Positions 8,069-20,659 of a stretch of 64,000 nucleotides of DNA are shown here, piece by piece. The first letter of the stretch is position 1. Every line of letters begins with the position of its first letter. Under the pieces are notes generated by a model, which had not been told where the DNA came from, did no database searches, and was given only the letters and a program-made list of their open reading frames with translations. A program made the position numbers and the translations under genes. Origin of the DNA: Spirochaetia bacterium. GTDB taxonomy: Bacteria > Spirochaetota > Spirochaetia > CAKZLE01. The DNA is taken from contig OY782041.1 in the NCBI GenBank assembly GCA_963677595.1, positions 480,001-544,000 of the forward strand, given 5' to 3'.

Positions 8069-9298
8069 TCAGAGTTTGACCTTGGCTCCTACGATGAATG
8101 CCTGGTTCTGGTTCTGGCCGGCGTAGTTGCCCATCTCCCGGCTGTAGTAGGCAGCATTGACTTCCAGGACAAGCAGGTTGAGCCCGCCGCCGAAGGTGAT
8201 GTACCCCTGGTTGATTCCGCCACGGACTTTCAGCATACGCAGCAGGTTGATCTCAGCCCCGAGGTGGATGTTCTTCCAGAGGGAGTCGTTCTCGATATTC
8301 TCCGGGTCGCTCCAGAAGGTATGGGTGTACTCAGCAGTGAACTTGAAGTCCATCAGCTCCTTCGCAGGGGAGTCATAGCCGAACCCGCCGGTGATCGACA
8401 TCGGGATCACGTAGGTGTAGCCGGAGACCGGGTCACCCGTCAGGTACTCATAGAGTTCCATCGGGCCGCTCCCAGTGGTAACGGCGGTCTCGATCTCAGC
8501 CATGGTCTGGCTGGAGGTGATGAGCTCCGTCCCCCCGATGTTGTTCACGGCAGCACCGATGGTGAAGCCCTTACCCATCTCGAGGATGGCACCGGCATCG
8601 AAGCCGTAGCCGATACTCATGTCGAAGGGGAAGGATGCGGGATCGAAATCACCGCCTTCCGAACTCTCGCTGAGGAGGCTTGCCACTTCGGTGACCGAGA
8701 GCCGCTCGGACGGCCTCAGCCGCACGATACCGCGGGCATCAGCCCCGATATGGAGCTTGCTGTTCCCCATGCCGAAGCCGTGCGATATTCCTGCAACCAG
8801 GGATGAGGTCACGACCGGGTCGACATAGAGCGAGAGGGCCGTCCCCTCCTGGGTGATCAGCATATCAACATCGGTGAGGAACCCCAGTCCAAGCCCGAAG
8901 GCCGCGAGGCCGAGCCCGATGTTCACGTTGGTGCCTACCCCGCTCTCGAGGTCAAGATCCTCCAGGATGCTCAGGATGGCATCCTCAGGGGCAGGCATCT
9001 CCTCCGACCCCTGGATCGCCTGGACCCACAGATCGATGATCTGCTCGGTCGGTACGAAATAGGGACCGACGTTCACTGAGGCGAAGGTCAGCTGTCCGCC
9101 CTTGCGGGACAAGCCTGCAGGGTTGGTGAACAGCGACTCGAACCCGCTCGCGATCGGGACGTTCGATCCGCCCATAGATTCTACGATCGGCGAGAGCAGG
9201 TAGACCGGGCTATCATCGATGACCACGGTATCTTCAGCGAAGGCAGCGCCGCCGCACAGGAATATCAGAATCAGTAGAGATCCAAGTAACTTCTTCAT
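8069..9298 (-). CDS. Putative outer-membrane beta-barrel (TraF/FadL/PorV-like), paralog 1
   Basis: Signal peptide; MGG...SLFTNPAGL hatch motif; amphipathic C-terminal strands (RGGINQGY); TGATG-coupled to the upstream lipoprotein. Confidence 0.7.
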   Translation of the reverse strand: MKKLLGSLLILIFLCGGAAFAEDTVVIDDSPVYLLSPIVESMGGSNVPIASGFESLFTNPAGLSRKGGQLTFASVNVGPYFVPTEQIIDLWVQAIQGSEEMPAPEDAILSILEDLDLESGVGTNVNIGLGLAAFGLGLGFLTDVDMLITQEGTALSLYVDPVVTSSLVAGISHGFGMGNSKLHIGADARGIVRLRPSERLSVTEVASLLSESSEGGDFDPASFPFDMSIGYGFDAGAILEMGKGFTIGAAVNNIGGTELITSSQTMAEIETAVTTGSGPMELYEYLTGDPVSGYTYVIPMSITGGFGYDSPAKELMDFKFTAEYTHTFWSDPENIENDSLWKNIHLGAEINLLRMLKVRGGINQGYITFGGGLNLLVLEVNAAYYSREMGNYAGQNQNQAFIVGAKVKL

Positions 9299-11214
9299 CA
9301 CTCACCTCCTTCCTCGCCGCTTGTCGGCATCCAGTTGGCGGGGTTATAGGTCTCCGGGTCACCCAGGACTAACTCAAGCTCCGCGTAGATGTCTGAGGAG
9401 AGGTCCACCAGGTCGAACAGATAGGGGACCTTCTCCATGGCTGCATAATCGGCCATGAGCTTGTTCGTCGGGGTCGGCACTTCACCGAAAGCCCAAGGAA
9501 TCTTCACGAATCCTGCATAGTTCATGTAGCCTGCCATGGCATTCCACATGTCATATTCGTCATAGTAGCCGCCACGGGTGATCAGGTCATACTGCAGGCC
9601 GTCGGGGAACTCGTTCCCGGCCACCCCGTCGACATCCTCGTCCGCATAGCTGTAGGGAATGGCATCAGCGACGTACTTCAGGGTGATCCTCATGAACTCA
9701 TCAGCCGTTCCCTCATCGACTGCCTCGATGGTTATCGCATCGGTCGCATTGATGAAATCGGTGAACGGGTCGATGGTGATCATACCGATCGGGTCATCAG
9801 GATCCACCTTGGCCGCATAGTCTATCACGAAGCCGATCATGGACATGACGGTCATCTTCAGCCCATCAGCGTTCAGGGCGCCCTGCGGGGTGAGGTATTT
9901 GCTCCCGAGGCCTACGAGTTCCTGCTCCCCATCAGGATCGAGCGGGTCGACAGGCTCGATGCTCAAGGTCGAGAGGAATGCCCTCCCGGCATCTGCCATT
10001 GAATCAAAGGTGTCTACCGTCACATCGAAGGTCTCGAAGTTGAGCTTCTCAGCCATGGTGTCTATGATATCCTGGACCGGGTTGGATTCGCTGCCCCCTG
10101 CTGCCTCAACATCCTCGAAGGGGTTGGGGATGTAAGCCCCGAAGGTTGCGTAGACCTGGTCTACCAGCTCGCCTGCATTGGAGATCGAGTCGGTGCCGTA
10201 ACCGAGATACCGGTCAATGAATACCAGAAGTTCCTCAAGCGTGACGCCCGGGAGGGTGTCAGTAGCAGGGATCATGTACTGGTCAAGGTCATCGGTGAAT
10301 ACATTAGCAGGATTCTGCAGTTCCACCAAGTCGATGATCGAGGACCTGTTCTCATCATTACCAGTCCCGTCAAGCTCGATACCCGGCAATGATGCGGTGT
10401 CAGTATACGGATAGAACTTCACATTCTGTTCAGCCGTATCGGATGCGATATCGCGGGTGTACATGACATAGTACTGGTCAGCTCCTAAGGCAGTATGCCC
10501 CTGGAAGACCAGCTGGATCTTCGATGCCAGGTTCGAGAGCGTCACCGTATCTGTGCTGTCAGAGTCATTGAATATGATCGTCCTCTCGGCAAGCGACCGT
10601 GACCGGAACGTACCCATCTCTCCGAGCATGGAGAGCAGGATATCTGAGGTATCCTCGACGAGGACCCCTGCGTTGTCATCGGCAGCCATCCTGACAGCAA
10701 CTGATGCCGTAGCGGCATCCTGCAGGACCTCTCTCAGGGCCTGTACCTCTTCAGCCGGCACATCGGCCTCCATCGCATCATCAACGATCTCTTTGAAGGT
10801 CTTGGTCGCGAGGGCCGCTACCTGGTCTTCATCATCGAGGTCGATATCGAGGGCTTCGAGTACACCGTCGACGATCTTGTCCAGGTTCTCGGCGACCTGG
10901 TCCAGGTCCCCTCCGCCTGCCTCGAAATCATCGAGTGTGTCATTGTCGGCCATCTCATCGATCAGGTCAAGGTAATCGGTCAACCCTTCATCGACAACCA
11001 CTGGGCCGGCACCCCCATCTCCGCTCACTACCGTGAAGCCTGTCAGGTCGATATTCCCCTCTCCGTCATCGGGGACGTCCCCCAATGCATCCTCCAGGTC
11101 ATTCTCAGAGAAGACAGGAAGCTTCTCGAAGCTAGAGAATATGTTTATGTCGCAGCTGGAGAATGCGAAAAGCAGCCCTATGAGTAAAAGGGCCAGAAAC
11201 ATGCTTTTTCTCAT
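9298..11214 (-). CDS. Large, highly acidic lipoprotein of unknown function
   Basis: MRKSMFLALLLIGLLFAFSSC lipobox; very D/E-rich; SD GGAGGG. Confidence 0.75.
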   Translation of the reverse strand: MRKSMFLALLLIGLLFAFSSCDINIFSSFEKLPVFSENDLEDALGDVPDDGEGNIDLTGFTVVSGDGGAGPVVVDEGLTDYLDLIDEMADNDTLDDFEAGGGDLDQVAENLDKIVDGVLEALDIDLDDEDQVAALATKTFKEIVDDAMEADVPAEEVQALREVLQDAATASVAVRMAADDNAGVLVEDTSDILLSMLGEMGTFRSRSLAERTIIFNDSDSTDTVTLSNLASKIQLVFQGHTALGADQYYVMYTRDIASDTAEQNVKFYPYTDTASLPGIELDGTGNDENRSSIIDLVELQNPANVFTDDLDQYMIPATDTLPGVTLEELLVFIDRYLGYGTDSISNAGELVDQVYATFGAYIPNPFEDVEAAGGSESNPVQDIIDTMAEKLNFETFDVTVDTFDSMADAGRAFLSTLSIEPVDPLDPDGEQELVGLGSKYLTPQGALNADGLKMTVMSMIGFVIDYAAKVDPDDPIGMITIDPFTDFINATDAITIEAVDEGTADEFMRITLKYVADAIPYSYADEDVDGVAGNEFPDGLQYDLITRGGYYDEYDMWNAMAGYMNYAGFVKIPWAFGEVPTPTNKLMADYAAMEKVPYLFDLVDLSSDIYAELELVLGDPETYNPANWMPTSGEEGGE

Positions 11215-11380
11215 AATTCCCTCCATTCAGGATTTGTTCGTGTTCATTTCCAAGCGAAAGCAGTCTGTATCTGTATGTATTATAACCAATGGGAATAGGG
11301 ATTGTTACTGTAAAACAGGAAGATAATTTAGATAATGGCAAAATTTAACCTATTACTAAGCAAATACTTAGCAACTGATC

Positions 11381-11435: not shown

Positions 11436-12677
11436 TCAGATCTTGACCTTGGCGCTGATCATGAGCTCTTCTGAGAGATCCTCATAGGTCATCCTGCTCT
11501 TTACGGCCTCGTCGACATAGTCGCCGAAGTAGGTAGCATTGACTTCGACAAGCAGCAGGTTGATCCCCGCACCTGCGGTGATCCTGCCCTTGTTGAGCCC
11601 GCCCCGGACCTTGGCGATGCCAAGCAGCGAGACCTCTGCACCGAGCTGCAGCTGTTCGATCAGGGTAGGCTCTTCGATGACAATGGACTTATCCGCGGCC
11701 AGGAGGGTGTCTAGGTCCAGCTCATAGTCTGCTGCGAGCCTGAGCCCCATCATGTGCCCCCTCGGGGTCTCATAGCCCAGCCCGACCTTCGCAGTCATCG
11801 GGAAGGTCAGGACGCTCCCGTTCGCAACCAGGTACTCGTAGAGTCCATCAGGCTCAAGAGTCTCCATCATATCCCCGATATTCTCAGCGGTATCTCCAAT
11901 CCAATACAGGTCCATATCGCCGATGTTCTCGACGGAGATGCCTGCAGAGAGCCCCCCAGGCAGGTCCAGGATCGCTCCTGCGTCGAACCCATAGCCCGCT
12001 GCGAGTTCAGCATCGGATTGCGAGAGGGTATCGTTAATCAATGCATACTTAAGATCAGTCTCCTGGAAGGTGCCCATGGCAAGGCCCTTCAGGTTAGCCC
12101 CGATACTCAGTGAGGCAGGTCCCATGTCGAACTTATGTGATAACCCGAGTACTGCCTCACTCTTCAGGATACCCTCGAATTTGATAGAATCCATATCATA
12201 AGCCTGAGAATAGATGTTGTACTCCGTGATGATCCCTGCACCGAGACCGAAGGCGCTCAGCCCGGCACCGACGTTACCGCCGATCGTGATCCCGTCCTGG
12301 ATCCCGAGTTTTGACAGGTCAGCGAAGAAGGCATCCTCATCCCCGTTGTACCAGACATCATAATGATCGATGATATCATCGAAGTCATAAACCGTATCAG
12401 GGTCCAGACTCTCCATCGGTGCGAATACCGTTGGATCCGGGATGAGGTCAGCATAGAAGTTGAGTGATGTGAACACCAGTTCCCCACCCCTCCTGCTGAA
12501 GCCTGCAGGATTGTTGAACAGGGCTTCGAACCCATTGGAGATTGCCGTCGAGGCGCCGCCCATGGCTTCTACCTCAGTGAACATGAACTTTTCCAGCGTA
12601 TCAAGAGTTGCTGAACCTGCGAAGACCGGTGTTACGATCAGCAGGCACACTATCATCATAATCATGAACTTTTTCAT
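11436..12677 (-). CDS. Putative outer-membrane beta-barrel (TraF/FadL/PorV-like), paralog 2
   Basis: Signal peptide MKKFMI...VFA; VEAMGG...ALFNNPAGF; clearly homologous to 8069-9298. Confidence 0.7.
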   Translation of the reverse strand: MKKFMIMMIVCLLIVTPVFAGSATLDTLEKFMFTEVEAMGGASTAISNGFEALFNNPAGFSRRGGELVFTSLNFYADLIPDPTVFAPMESLDPDTVYDFDDIIDHYDVWYNGDEDAFFADLSKLGIQDGITIGGNVGAGLSAFGLGAGIITEYNIYSQAYDMDSIKFEGILKSEAVLGLSHKFDMGPASLSIGANLKGLAMGTFQETDLKYALINDTLSQSDAELAAGYGFDAGAILDLPGGLSAGISVENIGDMDLYWIGDTAENIGDMMETLEPDGLYEYLVANGSVLTFPMTAKVGLGYETPRGHMMGLRLAADYELDLDTLLAADKSIVIEEPTLIEQLQLGAEVSLLGIAKVRGGLNKGRITAGAGINLLLVEVNATYFGDYVDEAVKSRMTYEDLSEELMISAKVKI

Positions 12678-12819
12678 CTCGTTTCCTCTCAATTGTGTGT
12701 TGTGTATAGAGTGTCAGTGCAAAGCAGTCTATCCTGTAGCAAGAATATCTGTTTGCTATACAAACCGCAAAGCAGTAAGATAGTTACAGGTTCTACTCGA
12801 AGATAGCACTACAATGTAC

Positions 12820-13396
12820 CTATAACACCATATTAGGAGAGTCAGGAATGCTTGTCAAATGGTTTTTCCGGAGGTTCTTCCCTTTAACAGAAATCACGCA
12901 ATTCAAAGATATCCTTGCCGTGCAGCCGCATGCGGACGATCTTGACATCGCGCTCGGCGGCACGATCGCCATGCTCGCAGAGAGGGGGGCGAGGATCACC
13001 TGCGTAACGGTCACCGATGATATCGGACAAGGTCCTGAGGGCACGCAGAGTATACGTCGCAAGGAGCAGGAGGAGGCAGGGAAGATATCGGGAGTGAGTG
13101 ACTTCATCTGGCTTGGGTACCCCGATGCGGGGTACTGGGACGAGGAGGCCTTGCGGAGGGATCTCATGAGGATCATGAACAGGGTGAAGCCGGACCTCAT
13201 CCTCTACCCTGACCCCACCCTCACCTTCGAGGCCCATCCAGACCACCTGAAGACCGGGAGGGCAGCCGCCGCAGCCGCCCTGCTCTTTCCCTATTTCTCG
13301 TCCGACGGAGCGGCTGCCGTCCCCCCGCCTGCCGGGGAGAGTACCATGGACTCAAGGGTGACCGTCGGCATGTACTTCTCCGACAAGCCGAACACC
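12820..13396. repeat. 577-bp direct repeat, left copy (long target-site duplication of the IS)
   Basis: Matches 15555-16131 at a constant offset of 2735; ORFs in three frames translate identically over the repeat. Confidence 0.95.
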
Positions 13397-13486
13397 CCGG
13401 TCTTTTTACCAGAATTAGCGAGTATGCCCATTTTCCCCATTTCAGCCCTGTCTAGGGCTATTTTTTTGGCCATTACGAATTTTTAA
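12848..13486 (+). pseudogene. Truncated duplicate of the PIG-L deacetylase (183 codons) fused to 29 IS-derived codons
   Basis: Identical to 15583-16344 up to DKPNT, then reads into the IS left end. Confidence 0.9.
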
Positions 13487-13516
13487 AGAAATATTACTGT
13501 GCTACGTTGTACCACG

Positions 13517-13545
13517 TTGCGCCACGCTACCAAATGTGTTACACT
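13517..13545 (+). promoter_or_regulatory. Transposase promoter candidate
   Basis: TTGCGC-17 bp-TACACT with TGn extension; SD AGGAGG 6 nt before the ATG at 13567. Confidence 0.6.
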
Positions 13546-13566
13546 ATATTACACAGGAGGTAGCCC

Positions 13567-15459
13567 ATGTATGTCTCCGTTATCCCAGAACACGCAACCG
13601 GCAAGCATCTGATGCAGTACGTCACAAGTACCCGCAAAGGGAAAAAGACTAAGAAAACCACGGAGGAAACCATCGGCTATGTCGAGGACTTCCTTGATCG
13701 CTATGATGACCCGGTCGCTCACTTCAAAGCAGAGGCCAAGCGGATCACAGCAGAGCGGAAAGCTCAGCAGAAGACTATAGGGGTTGAACTCCAACCCGAT
13801 GCACGGCTTCCCTTCGATCCGGATACCCACAGCTTCTCCCGTGAATTCAACATCGGCCATGCGGCGATCAGTCAGGTATTCCACACCCTTGACCTCCACA
13901 CCTTCTTTGATCGGCGCCGGATAAAGCTTGATGTGCAGTTCAATCTGACCGCTGTCATGAAACTCCTCATCTATGAGCGTATTCTGGCTCCTGCCTCCAA
14001 ACGCGCTACCTGGAAGTCTCGAAGGCGATACTTTGACAAGATGGACTTCAATCTCAATGCGGTATACCAGACCCTTTCTCACATCAACCCCTGGACTGAT
14101 GACCTGATCGCTCACCTGCATGCGAAGATGGTAGAACTCTATGACCGGGATACCACCCTCATGTACTATGATGTGACCAACTACTACTTTGAGATCGACG
14201 AAGCTGATGATTTTCGCATAAGGGGAATCTGCAAGGAGCACCGTCCGTTACCGATCGTGCAGATGGGGCTGTTCATGGATGAACAGGGCTTCCCGGTGTC
14301 CTTTGACTTGTTTCCCGGTAATGTCAATGACTGCCTGACCTTTGAAGCAATGAGCGAGCATGCCAGAACCCTGTTTGAGGCCAAGCATCTGATCTTCGTA
14401 GCTGACAAGGCCATGCTCACGGGGAACAACATCGCAGATGTGATCCTCCATCATAACGGGTATGTCTTCAGCAAGTCGGTACGGGGCGGGACGAAAAAAC
14501 TCAAGCAGGCGGTCAGGGATCCTCATGGCTATCTGCGGTTTGCGGAAGACGGGAAGCTCATTGCGCCTGGTGACAACGAGACGGCAGTCTGGTCCAAGTA
14601 CAAGATCCTTGATGAGCAGAAACCCACCTATGTGACGAACACGGACGGCAAGCGGGTAGCCTCCTCAGGTGTTGGCCACTACCAGATCATCTATTGGTCA
14701 CGTGCGTATGACAAACGAGCCAAAGCGCAGCGGCTGGAAGCGGTAGAGCATGCGCTTGATGCATCATCACGGCAGAGTAAGGAAGTCATCGACAGTAACT
14801 ACGGGAAGAACAAGTATCTGATGACCATGGTCTATGATCCCCAGACCAAGAAGTATACCGACAACTATAAGGCCAAGACGGAGTTTGATGCTGCCAAGCT
14901 TGAAGAAGATGAGTCGTTTGACGGATTCTATGTCATTGAGACCAATGTGACGGGGCTCAGACCGTTTGTCGATGCCAGGGGACATGAGACCGGTGAACTC
15001 GAGCCTGCGTTTGCCACACCTCACCGCTGGCTCAAAGAAGAGGGCATGCTGCAGCTCAACCGGCCGATTGGCCCTCTGGATATTATTACGATGTACCATG
15101 GGCTGTGGAAGATCGAACAGTCCTTCAGGGTCACCAAGAGTGAGTTGGATGCCCGTCCGGTCTTTCTGTCTTTAGAGGATCGAATTCATTCCCACTTCCT
15201 TACCTGCTTCATCGCTCTGCTCATCCTGCGTATCCTGGAGCATGAACTCGATCATGAATTCTCAACAGAGCAGATAGGGACTTCCCTGAATCAGGCGAAT
15301 GTCGCAGAGATCACTGGGGCAACGTACATGACTTTGCAGTACGATGAAGTCCAAAAGGCTTTGAAGGAAAAGATGGGAATCCCGTTCGGCATGAATGTAT
15401 ACTCGAGAGCTGCGATCAAGAAGATGATCGCTGAGACGAAAAAAAACCGGAAACGGTAG
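13567..15459 (+). CDS. IS1634-family DDE transposase
   Basis: YYDVTNYYFE, KEHRP..IVQMGL, VADKAM, YHGLWKIEQSFRVTKSELDARPVFL, IHSHFLTCFIAL motifs. Confidence 0.92.
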   Translation: MYVSVIPEHATGKHLMQYVTSTRKGKKTKKTTEETIGYVEDFLDRYDDPVAHFKAEAKRITAERKAQQKTIGVELQPDARLPFDPDTHSFSREFNIGHAAISQVFHTLDLHTFFDRRRIKLDVQFNLTAVMKLLIYERILAPASKRATWKSRRRYFDKMDFNLNAVYQTLSHINPWTDDLIAHLHAKMVELYDRDTTLMYYDVTNYYFEIDEADDFRIRGICKEHRPLPIVQMGLFMDEQGFPVSFDLFPGNVNDCLTFEAMSEHARTLFEAKHLIFVADKAMLTGNNIADVILHHNGYVFSKSVRGGTKKLKQAVRDPHGYLRFAEDGKLIAPGDNETAVWSKYKILDEQKPTYVTNTDGKRVASSGVGHYQIIYWSRAYDKRAKAQRLEAVEHALDASSRQSKEVIDSNYGKNKYLMTMVYDPQTKKYTDNYKAKTEFDAAKLEEDESFDGFYVIETNVTGLRPFVDARGHETGELEPAFATPHRWLKEEGMLQLNRPIGPLDIITMYHGLWKIEQSFRVTKSELDARPVFLSLEDRIHSHFLTCFIALLILRILEHELDHEFSTEQIGTSLNQANVAEITGATYMTLQYDEVQKALKEKMGIPFGMNVYSRAAIKKMIAETKKNRKR

Positions 15460-15554
15460 GGACGTACTACAAGTTTTTTTAGCCAGGTGCTGACCTATTG
15501 TGTTGTATTGCAATAGGTTAGCGCCGTCATTTCCTAAATTGGTAAAAACACAGG

Positions 15555-16131
15555 CTATAACACCATATTAGGAGAGTCAGGAATGCTTGTCAAATGGTTT
15601 TTCCGGAGGTTCTTCCCTTTAACAGAAATCACGCAATTCAAAGATATCCTTGCCGTGCAGCCGCATGCGGACGATCTTGACATCGCGCTCGGCGGCACGA
15701 TCGCCATGCTCGCAGAGAGGGGGGCGAGGATCACCTGCGTAACGGTCACCGATGATATCGGACAAGGTCCTGAGGGCACGCAGAGTATACGTCGCAAGGA
15801 GCAGGAGGAGGCAGGGAAGATATCGGGAGTGAGTGACTTCATCTGGCTTGGGTACCCCGATGCGGGGTACTGGGACGAGGAGGCCTTGCGGAGGGATCTC
15901 ATGAGGATCATGAACAGGGTGAAGCCGGACCTCATCCTCTACCCTGACCCCACCCTCACCTTCGAGGCCCATCCAGACCACCTGAAGACCGGGAGGGCAG
16001 CCGCCGCAGCCGCCCTGCTCTTTCCCTATTTCTCGTCCGACGGAGCGGCTGCCGTCCCCCCGCCTGCCGGGGAGAGTACCATGGACTCAAGGGTGACCGT
16101 CGGCATGTACTTCTCCGACAAGCCGAACACC
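15555..16131. repeat. 577-bp direct repeat, right copy
   Basis: Matches 12820-13396. Confidence 0.95.
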
Positions 16132-16344
16132 TTCATCCGCTGCGGGAAGTACCGGGGGCAGAAATACCGCGCGATCGCGAAGCATTCCTCACAATTTGAT
16201 GAAAAAGGATTCAAATCCCTCAGGTTGTATGATACCTTTCATGGTAGGTACACCGGTCTTTTTCGGGGTTCGCCATATGTGGAAGGGATAAAAGTCCTGC
16301 CGGCGACCCTGCTGCACTGTATACCTGAAGCGAGTAGGTATTAA
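15583..16344 (+). CDS. PIG-L/LmbE family deacetylase (intact copy)
   Basis: PHADD and HPDH metal-binding motifs, HSSQF near the C-terminus. Confidence 0.88.
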   Translation: MLVKWFFRRFFPLTEITQFKDILAVQPHADDLDIALGGTIAMLAERGARITCVTVTDDIGQGPEGTQSIRRKEQEEAGKISGVSDFIWLGYPDAGYWDEEALRRDLMRIMNRVKPDLILYPDPTLTFEAHPDHLKTGRAAAAAALLFPYFSSDGAAAVPPPAGESTMDSRVTVGMYFSDKPNTFIRCGKYRGQKYRAIAKHSSQFDEKGFKSLRLYDTFHGRYTGLFRGSPYVEGIKVLPATLLHCIPEASRY

Positions 16345-16373
16345 TAAAGTCTGATCATAAAAACTGGAGTGTT

Positions 16374-17006
16374 ATGAGCCCGCAGGTTACTTGGCTTGGC
16401 CATGCATCATTCAAGATATCCGGATCGAAGACCATCTATATCGATCCATGGCGGATCGAAGGATCCCCGCAGGATGCCGACATAATCCTCATTAGCCATA
16501 ACCATTATGACCACTTCTCCGTCTTCGACATCGAGCGGGTCGAGCACAAGAGGACCATCCTCTTCGGGCCGCTCTCCGTCATCGAGGAACTTCACCGGGG
16601 GAATCCCTTCAAGCCGTGGGACCGTGCCGCCGGGGGGAATACCGAGATCCTCGGGACCCCTGCGTACAACCCCAGGAGCCCCTTTCACCCGAAGGCCAAG
16701 CAGTGGCTCGGATTCGTCATCTCCATGGACGGGAAGATCATCTACTTCTCAGGTGATACCGACCTGGTCCCGGAGATGGCTGACCTCCCCGGGGGGATCG
16801 ACATCATGCTGGTGCCGGTCAGCGGGATCCATGCCATGAACCCGAAGCTGGCGATCAAAGTCTGCGACCTCATCAAGCCGAAATACGTCATCCCCTACCA
16901 GTGGGGTGATACCATTGGCACCATCGAGGATGTTGACTACTTCTGCGAGTATGTGACATCGAGCAAGGCGATCAAACTGCTGCCCGGCAACTCGTTCAAC
17001 CCATGA
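16374..17006 (+). CDS. Metallo-beta-lactamase-fold hydrolase (UPF0173/UlaG-like)
   Basis: WLGHASF, SHNHYDH, YFSGDT motifs. Confidence 0.88.
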   Translation: MSPQVTWLGHASFKISGSKTIYIDPWRIEGSPQDADIILISHNHYDHFSVFDIERVEHKRTILFGPLSVIEELHRGNPFKPWDRAAGGNTEILGTPAYNPRSPFHPKAKQWLGFVISMDGKIIYFSGDTDLVPEMADLPGGIDIMLVPVSGIHAMNPKLAIKVCDLIKPKYVIPYQWGDTIGTIEDVDYFCEYVTSSKAIKLLPGNSFNP

Positions 17007-17087
17007 GAGAAAGGAGGACACACCTGCGGTGTACGGTTCAGACCACGTCACTTTACAGGCTTCACGGCAGGTGGTAGCATACAGGTA

Positions 17088-18380
17088 ATGAAGACACTCA
17101 TACGCAATGCGACTATCATCCCGATGGCAGGGAGAGACGCTCACAGCCTTTCCGGCAGTATCGGGATCACTGACAGCCTCATCTCCTTCGTCGGGGATGC
17201 CCCTGATGATTTCAGACCCGACACCACCATCGACGGGACCGGCTATATCGTCATGCCGGGCCTCGTCAACGCCCATAACCACCTGAGCATGACGCTCCTG
17301 CGCAACTATGCCGATGACATGGATCTGTTCACCTGGCTCAACGAGAAGATCTGGCCGGTGGAAGCGAAGCTCACCAAAGACGACATCTACTGGGGCTCCA
17401 TGCTGGGAGCCGCTGAACAGATACGCAGCGGCATCACCTCCTTCGCCGACATGTACTTCCACCAGGAGGAGACCGTCAAGGCGATCGCTGCCGCGGGGAT
17501 CCGTGGAAGCATCAGTGCGACCTTCTTCGGCGACCGAGATGATACCGATTCCAGGATCTCTGAGACGATCTCCCTCCATGAACGGTACCACGACAGCAGT
17601 GACGGCAGGATCTCCATCGACATCGCCCCCCATGCCATATACACCTGTACAGACTATACCCTGCGCAAGAGCGCCGAGATCGCAACCCAACTCGGGTGCA
17701 GGATCCATACCCATATCTCCGAGAGCCGCAAGGAGCACGAGGAGTGTATCGCCAGCCACGGCATGACGCCCCTTGCCTACCTGGAAACGATGGGCCTCCT
17801 CGAGCTTCCTGTCTATGCCGCCCATGCAGTCTACCTGGACGATGATGACATCGCCCTGGCAAAGAAGCATAAAGTATCGCTGGTCCACAACCCCACGAGC
17901 AACCTGAAGCTCGGCAACGGGTTCGCACCGGTCGAGAAGTTCCTCGATGCCGGCCTCACCGTGGCACTGGGGACTGACGGAGCCTCGAGCAACAACAACC
18001 TCAACCTCTTCGAGGAGATGCATATCACCTCCTTGATCCATAAGGGATTCTCCGGGGACCCGACCATGCTCAGCGCCTATGAGGTCCTGAGGATGGCCAC
18101 GATCAACGGGGCCCGTGCCCTCGGCATCGACGGACGTACCGGTTCGATCGAACCGGGCAAGGAGGCGGATCTCATCCTGATCGACACACGGGTACCGCAC
18201 CTGCAGCCGGTAGGAGACCCGGTATCAGCTGTCGTATACAGTGCCCAGGCCTCTGACGTGGATACGGTCTTCTGCCAGGGAAGGATGCTGATGCAGGGGA
18301 GGAAGCTGATGACCCTTGATGAGGAGGAGATCATCACCAATGCCGCAGCTGCCGCTGCGAGACTGACACGGACACCATAG
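17088..18380 (+). CDS. mtaD: 5'-methylthioadenosine/S-adenosylhomocysteine deaminase (amidohydrolase)
   Basis: PGLVNAHNH, HISE, LGTDGASSNN motifs; adjacent to mtnA. Confidence 0.82.
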   Translation: MKTLIRNATIIPMAGRDAHSLSGSIGITDSLISFVGDAPDDFRPDTTIDGTGYIVMPGLVNAHNHLSMTLLRNYADDMDLFTWLNEKIWPVEAKLTKDDIYWGSMLGAAEQIRSGITSFADMYFHQEETVKAIAAAGIRGSISATFFGDRDDTDSRISETISLHERYHDSSDGRISIDIAPHAIYTCTDYTLRKSAEIATQLGCRIHTHISESRKEHEECIASHGMTPLAYLETMGLLELPVYAAHAVYLDDDDIALAKKHKVSLVHNPTSNLKLGNGFAPVEKFLDAGLTVALGTDGASSNNNLNLFEEMHITSLIHKGFSGDPTMLSAYEVLRMATINGARALGIDGRTGSIEPGKEADLILIDTRVPHLQPVGDPVSAVVYSAQASDVDTVFCQGRMLMQGRKLMTLDEEEIITNAAAAAARLTRTP

Positions 18381-18392
18381 GAGAAGGTACCG

Positions 18393-19466
18393 ATGAGAGA
18401 ACTGAGCGAGAACTTCGAGACACTGGCATTCACGGACGGGAAGCTGGTCATGCTTGACCAGAGGAAACTCCCGACGGAACTGACCTACTACACCTGTAAC
18501 GATTACCGGGATGTGGAGTTCGTCATACGAGACATGGTCGTCCGGGGGGCCCCGGCCATCGGGGCGACAGCCGCCTACGGCTTCTACCTTGCCGCAGTCG
18601 AACTCGCCGGGGTCGAGGATGACCAACAGTTCATGCAGAAGCTCCAGGAAGCCAGCGATTTCATGGAAGACGCACGCCCCACGGCAGTGAACCTCCGGTG
18701 GGCCCTGCGCAGGATGATGAAGAAGACCGGGGAGCTCCTTGGAAGTCCCCGGGAGGAACTACTCTCCCAGCTGAAGACATTGGCAGACTACATCAAGCAG
18801 GAAGACATCGACATCAACCGCCAGATGAGCCGCCACGGCAATGAGGTCATCGGGCAGAACGCCACGATCCTCACCCACTGCAATACCGGGGCCCTCGCCA
18901 CCGCCGGCTGGGGGACAGCCCTCGGGGTCATCAAGGAAGCCTATGTCTCCGGCAAGGACATCTTCGTCTATGCTGATGAGACGAGGCCGCGACTGCAGGG
19001 TGCACGCCTCACTGCCTGGGAGCTCAAGCAGGCAGGCATTCCCTCGAAGCTCATATCGGACAGCGTCGCCGCGACCCTGATCAGGGACGGGAAGATCGAC
19101 TGCGTGATCCTCGGCGGTGACCGGGTAGCGGCGAACGGCGATGTCTGCAACAAGATCGGGACCTTCATGCTCTCGGTCATCTGTAAGATGTACGGGGTCC
19201 CCTTCTACAGCGTGGTGCCTGTCTCCACGATCGACTTCGAGATCGAGACCGGGGAGGAGATCCCCATCGAGGAGCGTGATGCTTCCGAGGTCACCCACGT
19301 CAGGGGCATGCAGATCGCACCGGACGGTATGGAGGTCTATAACCCCGCGTTCGACGTGACTCCCCACCAGAACATCACCGGCATCATCACCGAGGTCGGG
19401 ATCATCCGACCGCCCTACCGGGAGAACATCGAGAAGATCAGGAAGGCATATGCGGAGAAGCAGTGA
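18393..19466 (+). CDS. mtnA: S-methyl-5-thioribose-1-phosphate isomerase
   Basis: MVVRGAPAIG, RPTAVNL, THCNTGALAT, ETRPRLQGARLT, NKIGT, NPAFDVTP. Confidence 0.95.
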   Translation: MRELSENFETLAFTDGKLVMLDQRKLPTELTYYTCNDYRDVEFVIRDMVVRGAPAIGATAAYGFYLAAVELAGVEDDQQFMQKLQEASDFMEDARPTAVNLRWALRRMMKKTGELLGSPREELLSQLKTLADYIKQEDIDINRQMSRHGNEVIGQNATILTHCNTGALATAGWGTALGVIKEAYVSGKDIFVYADETRPRLQGARLTAWELKQAGIPSKLISDSVAATLIRDGKIDCVILGGDRVAANGDVCNKIGTFMLSVICKMYGVPFYSVVPVSTIDFEIETGEEIPIEERDASEVTHVRGMQIAPDGMEVYNPAFDVTPHQNITGIITEVGIIRPPYRENIEKIRKAYAEKQ

Positions 19467-20659
19467 TGGATAAAGAAACAAGACGTATCGCGACCGACCT
19501 GGTCCATGGAGGCGGGGAGACAGCAGGGGATGCATCCAAGGCCCTCAACCCGCCGATCTACATGACCTCGACCTTCACCTTCGACTCGATTGGACATGCC
19601 GACGAGGTCATGTCCTTCGCAAGCGACGACTATGTCTATACCAGGGGGAACAACCCTACCCTGCGCCTCTTCGAGGACCGCATGAGCATTCTCGAGGGAG
19701 GGGCCGCATCGGTTGCCTTCGCATCTGGGATGGCCGCGATCTCTTCCACCCTCCTCGCCCTGGCCTCCCCGGGAGATACGGTACTCATCCACCGGACGCT
19801 CTACGGCTCTTCCTACACACTGGCGACCCACCTCCTGCCGAAATGGGGGATCTCCTATATCGCAGCGGACCTGCGGGATACCGAAGCAGTGCGGAAGATC
19901 TGTTCGGGGAACAGGATAGCCGCGGTCTACTTCGAGACCCCGGTGAACCCGGATCTCGCAATCATCGATATCAAGGCAGTTGCGGATGCAGCCCATGCAT
20001 ACGGTGCACAAGTCGTGGTCGACAACACCTTCGCCTCTCCCTGCCTGCAGAACCCGCTCTCCCTCGGTGCGGATGCGGTCCTGCACAGTACGACGAAATA
20101 CATCTGCGGTCACGGTGATGCCCTTGGGGGCGTCGTCACCACCACGAATGAGGAGCTTGCTGCTACGATCAAGTTCGGCTATATGTGTGAGCTCGGCGGG
20201 GTCATGAGCCCCTTCAACGGATGGCTGATGCTGCGGGGACTCAAGACCCTCCAGCTGAGGATGGAACGTCACTGTTCAAATGCCCTGTGGGCAGCTGAGC
20301 ATCTTGCATCACACCCGAAGGTACGCCAGGTCTTCTATCCCGGGCTGTCAGGCCACCCTGACCATGAGCTTGCCGCCAGGCAGATGTCAGGGTTCGGGGG
20401 GATCATCAGCTTCGAGGTCGATGGGTACCTGAAAGCAGCTGCCCGCTGCATCGATAGCTTCTCCATGGCGAAGATCGCCGTGAGCCTCGGTGACTGCGAG
20501 ACACTGGTCCAACTGCCTGCAGCGATGACCCACCGCGGCTATGACCGGGACCGGCTCGCGGAGGCAGGCCTCACTGAGAGCATGATCCGCCTCTCGATCG
20601 GTATCGAGGACATCGATGATATCATAGATGATATAGAGAGGGCCCTGGAGGCCGTCTGA
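19466..20659 (+). CDS. PLP-dependent trans-sulfuration enzyme (methionine gamma-lyase/cystathionine gamma-lyase family)
   Basis: YTRGNNPT, FASGMAAI, VDNTF, HSTTKYICGHGD (PLP lysine), VSLG. Confidence 0.85.
   Translation: MDKETRRIATDLVHGGGETAGDASKALNPPIYMTSTFTFDSIGHADEVMSFASDDYVYTRGNNPTLRLFEDRMSILEGGAASVAFASGMAAISSTLLALASPGDTVLIHRTLYGSSYTLATHLLPKWGISYIAADLRDTEAVRKICSGNRIAAVYFETPVNPDLAIIDIKAVADAAHAYGAQVVVDNTFASPCLQNPLSLGADAVLHSTTKYICGHGDALGGVVTTTNEELAATIKFGYMCELGGVMSPFNGWLMLRGLKTLQLRMERHCSNALWAAEHLASHPKVRQVFYPGLSGHPDHELAARQMSGFGGIISFEVDGYLKAAARCIDSFSMAKIAVSLGDCETLVQLPAAMTHRGYDRDRLAEAGLTESMIRLSIGIEDIDDIIDDIERALEAV

Follow-up and report, generated by a model that had tools for sequence, protein, structure and literature searches.

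Long target duplications of an IS1634-family element in a Spirochaetia genome, with one joint probably set at promoters

In a Spirochaetia genome (assembly GCA_963677595.1), we analysed an insertion sequence (IS) together with the long direct repeat that encloses it. Both are found in a window of 64,000 bp (contig OY782041.1, positions 480,001 to 544,000), and positions given below without further label refer to this window. The element belongs to the IS1634 family and has a length of 2158 bp (13397–15554, forward strand). It directly abuts two copies of a 577-bp sequence: positions 12820–13396 are repeated at 15555–16131 (both forward) without a mismatch, and the repeat is bounded by mismatches on both sides. 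Chance is excluded as the source of this identity. The left copy is in the native position, and the same region is colinear and single-copy in the congener G002. The ends of the element are short inverted repeats of 15 nt, which are imperfect (87% complementary) and fit the C-----YT start of the IS1634 family (CCGGTCTT.. and CCTGTGTT..). At the left inverted repeat (13397–13411, forward) the joint is variable and here lies within the coding sequence of a PIG-L-family deacetylase, and at the right inverted repeat (15540–15554, reverse) the joint is fixed, to CTATAAC. The exact repeat and its contact with both inverted repeats had been described in a first-pass annotation of this DNA, which overlooked that the two joints differ in kind.

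The repeat starts 28 bp before the ATG of the PIG-L-family gene (12848 in the left and 15583 in the right copy). To the right of the element, the gene is intact (15583–16344, forward, 253 aa) and retains its Shine–Dalgarno sequence (AGGAG); to the left, 183 codons continue into an IS-derived tail, resulting in a 212-aa fusion (12848–13486, forward). This arrangement agrees with the first-pass annotation, which furthermore called the insertion non-disruptive. For the coding sequence and its Shine–Dalgarno sequence this is correct; however, the conserved promoter-like sequence of the PIG-L operon (TTGCTA-17-TAAGAT at 12753–12781, forward; TTGCTA-17-TATCAT in G002 and TTGCCA-17-TATCAT in the congener G001) lies outside the repeat and was not duplicated. 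Transcription from it would now run into the truncated copy and a terminator-like hairpin with a T run in the left end of the element (13444–13459, forward, a consensus match only), which is oriented against incoming host transcription. Cut off from its native promoter, the intact gene would depend on one within the element, for which the sequence offers the candidate TGGGAA-18-TATACT at 15398.

The spared gene is not PIG-L but the divergent gene on the left (11436–12692, reverse), which resembles PorV/PorQ or TraF with matches below the cut-offs. Its promoter is the likely target, and its upstream region is whole. The promoter-like sequence of this leftward gene, TTGACA-17-TAATAT (12830–12858, reverse), has the counterpart TTGACA-17-TATGAT in G002, and the joint at 12820 corresponds to about +4 of the predicted transcript. 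Read on the bottom strand, the joint is TG-T-TATAG|G. The right repeat copy contains the duplicate of this promoter (15565–15593, reverse), which is directed into the right end of the element, antisense to the transposase. A second hairpin behind the transposase stop codon (15490–15522, forward), a candidate picked by eye, is a possible terminator. In a scan of positions 12500–16500, terminator-like matches were at chance level (3 compared to 3.3 expected), as were promoter counts, and we thus accepted only conserved sites as support. The predicted RNA fold of the left end is no better than that of shuffled sequences (z -1.19).

The transposase (13567–15459, forward, 630 aa) reaches 299 bits on the IS1634 model NF033559 of NCBIfam (cut-off 100), so that the family assignment made in the first pass stands. 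In an alignment of 107 relatives, the residues D202, D280 and E517 are conserved. As is typical for the IS1634 family, the YREK region lacks the R (Y510-x2-L513-x3-E517-x6-K524), and the combination that marks the IS4 family proper, a complete YREK with repeats of 8–13 bp, is absent. The element is slightly longer than is typical for the IS1634 family (1500–2000 bp), and instead of the typical AT-rich duplication of 5–6 bp we found repeats of 128–707 bp at all five copies in this genome. An alignment-based structure model (pLDDT 91) predicts a Tn5-like fold, the closest structure in the PDB being the Tn5 transposase (3ecp, E 1.1e-09); a search of the PDB with the transposase sequence revealed no sequence relative. 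A structure prediction from the single sequence was discarded (pLDDT 31).

The source genome is assembled as one contig of 4.33 Mb, in which four of the five copies of the element are identical and one has a single change. This lone variant base (position 174 of the copy at G000:C1:572036-574193) turns the second codon of the transposase from Y to H. Measuring the flanks of the other copies had been proposed in the first pass, and all five copies have long repeats rather than short target duplications: 577, 707, 128 (1 mismatch), 564 and 212/213 bp (4 differences). The length differs at each copy, as in the long-repeat type represented by IS1634 and IS1549. A related element in the same genome is present in two copies with repeats of 298 and 94 bp. 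By contrast, the other IS1634-family elements of this genome that score above the NF033559 cut-off leave 5–7 bp (one of them 6 bp in five of five copies), and a FastTree analysis places these short-repeat elements apart from the long-repeat clade (support 0.987). Among the 69 repeat clusters of the genome (3 unscored), no exact flanking repeat above 11 bp was found outside the clade. Since IS1634-family elements outside the clade leave short repeats in the same genome, the long-repeat trait belongs to the element clade and not to the host. A host factor as the cause was rejected on the same grounds, with no search aimed at an IS-excision enhancer gene. Several distinct IS1634-family elements coexist in this genome, and long repeats come from two types only. 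Across 23 better-assembled genomes, a hand tally that left out many loci too short to judge found a long repeat in 62 of 75 copies.

The first pass had taken the duplication to be a product of the insertion itself and had suggested a comparison with an empty allele. Such empty loci are present in both congeners: in G002, colinearity extends from the left gene into a PIG-L gene present once, as far as the contig reaches, and G001 carries a single intact PIG-L gene (62% identity). Furthermore, two loci of the genome G232 (L225 and L226), which have opposite orientation, lack repeats of their own, but the left flank of each equals the right flank of the other (177 and 311 bp). Such a swap is expected after an inversion, here of about 1.27 Mb, between two long-repeat insertions of independent origin. 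The long repeats at other copies, the empty loci and the repeats swapped by the G232 inversion all speak, indirectly, for an origin at insertion. That the repeats stem instead from recombination between two independent insertions, from a host factor or capture by break repair, or from mis-assembly is very close to negligible in our estimate. One-off events that leave an IS between two target copies have been described (PMC11708052; this and the other articles cited by PMC number are known to us from partial texts), and no read spanning both junctions was seen. However, every copy of the clade in the source genome owns a repeat while other elements of the same genome have short ones, 16 of the 71 sites analysed below have imperfect repeat pairs, the flanks in G232 are reciprocally swapped, and the pattern recurs in a RefSeq record. 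An assembly artefact in particular is unlikely, because all seven long-repeat-clade copies in the one-contig genome own a repeat and three of these are imperfect.

In run X1 (short reads), 15555 and 13397 are contig starts, and 16131 and 12849 (the repeat start + 30) are contig ends; such breaks fit the expectation if both junctions exist. Among the listed records, none bridges a junction with at least 31 letters on each side, and X1 may derive from the source or a close strain and is thus not independent. Loose ends in the runs X1, X2 and X4 represent junctions that are absent from this genome; one flank from these runs maps to G000:C1:2366143, where no copy of the element is located, so that related strains carry other insertions. 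The first-pass suggestion of a recent event fits the identical repeat copies at the focal locus. However, the copy at G000:C1:2572952-2575109 is identical to the focal element while its repeats differ at four places. IS identity alone is thus a weak clock, and the IS copies may have been homogenised by conversion or by assembly. A clean RecA-mediated excision of the element, which the first pass had also raised, is plausible from general knowledge and from the case described in PMC11708052.

To characterize the joints, we compared 71 sites with a repeat from 33 element groups, where one site cut by a contig end was dropped. Repeat lengths range from 33 to 903 bp (median 132) and look log-normal. 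The right end (3' of the transposase) has the target W-T-A-T-A-A, with A at 45 and T at 19 sites in the first position, T at 60 sites in the second and A at 48 in the third. This signal survives when one site per group is used (T at +2 averages 27.6 of 33). The left joint follows Y-T|C instead, where T at -1 (45/71) is preceded by C at 35 of the 71 sites and C occupies +1 at 45. Gene context was determined with our own open reading frame caller for 67 sites, after four with short flanks had been dropped. The right joint is intergenic at 52 of these, compared to 15% of random positions, and the left joint at 35. At 44 of the 52 intergenic sites, the gene to the left lies on the minus strand with its start at the site (median 62 bp), reading away from the repeat. 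Gaps at the right joint are between two minus-strand genes in 23 cases and between two plus-strand genes in a single case, compared to 48 and 65 in the genome background; a further 21 of the 52 are divergent gaps.

On the bottom strand, the right-end word reads as a -10 box. An extended -10 TG occurs at 15 of the 71 sites on the bottom strand compared to 2 on the top strand (background 6.6%), and only the bottom strand has a -35 score above that of motif-matched decoys (p 0.03), as judged with promoter matrices of Escherichia coli frequencies. Counted from the right joint, position +11 is A in 40 of 71 sites, and 8 sites, the focal one among them, have a -10-like word further inward by ten bases, possibly reflecting a second register offset by one turn. 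For one subclade, in which both ends have the same sequence, the cut falls between -8 and -7 of TG-n-TAnnnT at all nine sites, made by the right end at five and by the left end at four. Similarly, a -10 at the left end is present at 7 of 13 identical-end sites compared to 2 of the 58 others, where the identical-end groups were chosen after the pattern had been seen. Individual loci provide further instances. At L060:3275-8303, tandem IS variants have hit one right-end target base twice, with repeats of 60 and 314 bp. On the RefSeq plasmid NZ_LN846931.1, the right end immediately follows TTGACA-17-TATATT at a distance of 54 bp ahead of an annotated PTS IIA gene, and the repeat measures about 308 bp with an interrupted left copy.

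Three further loci were observed. The left repeat copy at L254:2514-2628 is broken by an insert of about 115 bp with about 10 bp duplicated. On a Ligilactobacillus plasmid (L255:5660-7850, NZ_CP089852.1), a relative adjoins the ermC leader, with ATTATA at the right joint and no repeat left. At L064, the left end lies, by eye, in a TTGACA-17-TAGAAT promoter before a tRNA-like gene.

We conclude that the repeat most likely results from an insertion in which one end joins at a promoter-like -10 box or transcription start. The other end would join the opposite strand hundreds of bases upstream, probably as a step of its own. We give this reading a probability of about 0.62. By DDE chemistry, the Tn5-like transposase would make both joints: the 3' end of the right end would join the top strand at the start of the repeat, which is the template strand of the promoter, and the 3' end of the left end would join the bottom strand at the end of the repeat. 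At both ends, A is the preferred first base to be joined, in agreement with a single active site that makes the two joints. The joint at the promoter would be made first. It would enter the template strand where the -10 box ends on its downstream side, probably in DNA that RNA polymerase has bent or opened, and the second end would be captured afterwards. From the two free 3' ends, strand-displacement synthesis by the host would then unwind and copy the intervening DNA. A separate joining of the two ends would likely explain the long duplications, and widely staggered joints with fill-in, as put forward in the first pass, are the likely chemistry. As a consequence of these steps, the targeted gene would keep its whole upstream region, the copied promoter would transcribe into the element antisense to the transposase, and the DNA at the second joint, here PIG-L, would keep a full copy but may lose its promoter.

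Several points weigh against this reading. The order of the joints and the role of RNA polymerase are inferred. At the focal joint, the better conserved -10 sits ten bases further in. TAnnnT at the two main registers is found at only 31 of 71 right joints, and a fixed-register -35 peak, sought across the 71 sites, was not seen. The top strand is also -10-like compared to decoys (p 0.002), the word being nearly palindromic. According to our heuristic gene calls, 15 of 67 right joints lie within genes, and 6 of the 52 intergenic ones lie between convergent genes. Furthermore, the sites are survivors of selection and were picked for having a repeat, and no repeat was found at 14 of 48 loci of one survey and at two of three plasmid copies. 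Lastly, genomes that use the TGA code have long repeats at 15 of 26 loci, and 14 elements from such genomes (1.83–1.91 kb) with long repeats show T at +2 in one of 14 and a minus-strand left gene in 5 of 10; both of their ends join before A runs. We thus dropped polarity as a family-wide property, since these 14 relatives do not show it; as far as tested, the promoter-linked polarity is specific to the clade. In a tree computed without the named IS1634 and IS1549 sequences, the unnamed TGA-code relatives with long repeats group with the clade (support 0.70).

Some of these points would also be expected if the transposase, acting on naked DNA, recognises nothing more than the short AT-rich word WTATAA. 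Promoters would be hit because they contain it, and the bias in orientation would result from the loss, by selection, of insertions in harmful orientations. The near-palindromic word scores on both strands, the -35 signal is weak, and in the rare orientation a gene would lose its -35 region; moreover, short-repeat members of the family also use AT-rich tracts (PMC2266710). However, we consider this explanation unlikely, though well worth keeping in view: the TG extension and the -35 excess occur on the bottom strand only, the register is base-exact in nine of nine sites of the identical-end subclade, and 21 of 52 sites have been retained in gaps between divergent genes, in which the gene on the right is at risk.

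The lengths and strands of the insertions bear on a different proposal, namely that the ends join two sister duplexes behind a replication fork and that the offset between the joints becomes the duplication. We found no helical phasing of repeat lengths at 10.0–11.3 bp (64 lengths of at most 330 bp) and a weak period near 11.8 (p 0.02 uncorrected, 21 periods), and the lack of a 10.5-bp periodicity speaks for sister duplexes. In addition, an IS1634-family transposase has been reported to bind the beta clamp (PMC5371812), and the transposase lies on the lagging strand in six of the genome's own seven copies. Across the 67 sites, however, 40 are lagging, which is close to the gene-strand bias of 57%, and the replichore estimator was right in only 108 of 150 cases. 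We therefore discarded the replichore bias as a signal, as it is not separable from the gene-strand bias. The promoter orientation bias is much stronger than the replichore bias, and we regard joining across sister duplexes as quite improbable, although it can coexist with promoter targeting.

Starting again from an insertion whose first joint is at a promoter, we tentatively suggest a further-reaching model, for which we would not claim even odds. The clade may represent a transposon that homes to promoters. Its transposase would be guided to promoters engaged by RNA polymerase and would cut the template strand of the -10 box with one end, whereas the second end would be captured far upstream. 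The promoter would thereby be copied rather than broken, the host gene would be spared, and the antisense promoter would damp the element's own transposase. Differences between the inverted repeats would set which end takes the promoter.

The neighbourhood of the insertion contains additional genes. The leftward gene next to the repeat has a related PorV/TraF-like gene at 8069–9301, and the two (both reverse) flank a gene at 9298–11226, whose product is a very acidic, lipoprotein-like protein of 642 aa without a Pfam match. Downstream, the region 16374–20659 resembles a methionine salvage cluster, with a metallo-beta-lactamase fold, an amidohydrolase, MtnA and a PLP lyase-like gene; a separate promoter-like sequence (TTTACA-17-TAGCAT, 17052–17080) is located within it.

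With one joint fixed at the -10 box and the other free to fall upstream, a long-standing question becomes open to direct tests of the order of the ends, the need for RNA polymerase and the control of length. If true, promoter-linked joining would be a new strategy of target choice for DDE transposases and would give rise to duplicated promoters and partial genes as well as to reversion without a scar. It would also call for caution, as short-read assemblies break or collapse at such sites. For the IS1634 family, repeats of 5–6 bp are typical, with 8–514 bp for IS1549 and IS1634 (PMC2266710). The part of that article (2008) available to us offers no model for the long duplications, and we found none since. 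Likewise, we found no report of promoter-linked polarity in the literature searched, which did not extend to subscription journals; the original IS1634 and IS1549 papers may mention a target bias.

When comparing the element to known systems, IS1634 of Mycoplasma mycoides SC and IS1549 of Mycobacterium smegmatis are alike in having a single DDE transposase of the NF033559 family, ends starting with C, and long variable repeats. By their published descriptions, they differ in that the repeats extend to 577 and 707 bp in this genome and to 903 bp in a relative, and we found no account of a polar, promoter-linked joint for them in the literature searched; IS1634 is also shorter (1872 bp compared to 2158 bp, PMC1798306). 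ISPfe2 and ISGka5 share the family model and AT-rich targets but have repeats of 6 bp (PMC3281130, PMC8024623). IS50/Tn5 of the IS4 family is the best structural match, with a DDE core, whereas sequence identity is about 10%, the focal transposase lacks the R of YREK, and the IS50 subgroup has fixed repeats of 8–9 bp (PMC2266710). Insertions of restriction-modification genes also show long variable target duplications, but these involve no transposase or inverted repeats and measure about 45–49 bp in one table (PMC2853133). In the IS481 case of Pseudomonas fluorescens SBW25, the IS likewise lies between target copies, and clean loss of the IS with one copy was observed (PMC11708052); there, however, it was a single event of 60 kb that is atypical for IS481, whereas in the clade described here it is the rule. 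Thus, the long variable repeat is a known trait, seen here slightly beyond its published range, and what is new is the promoter-linked polarity.

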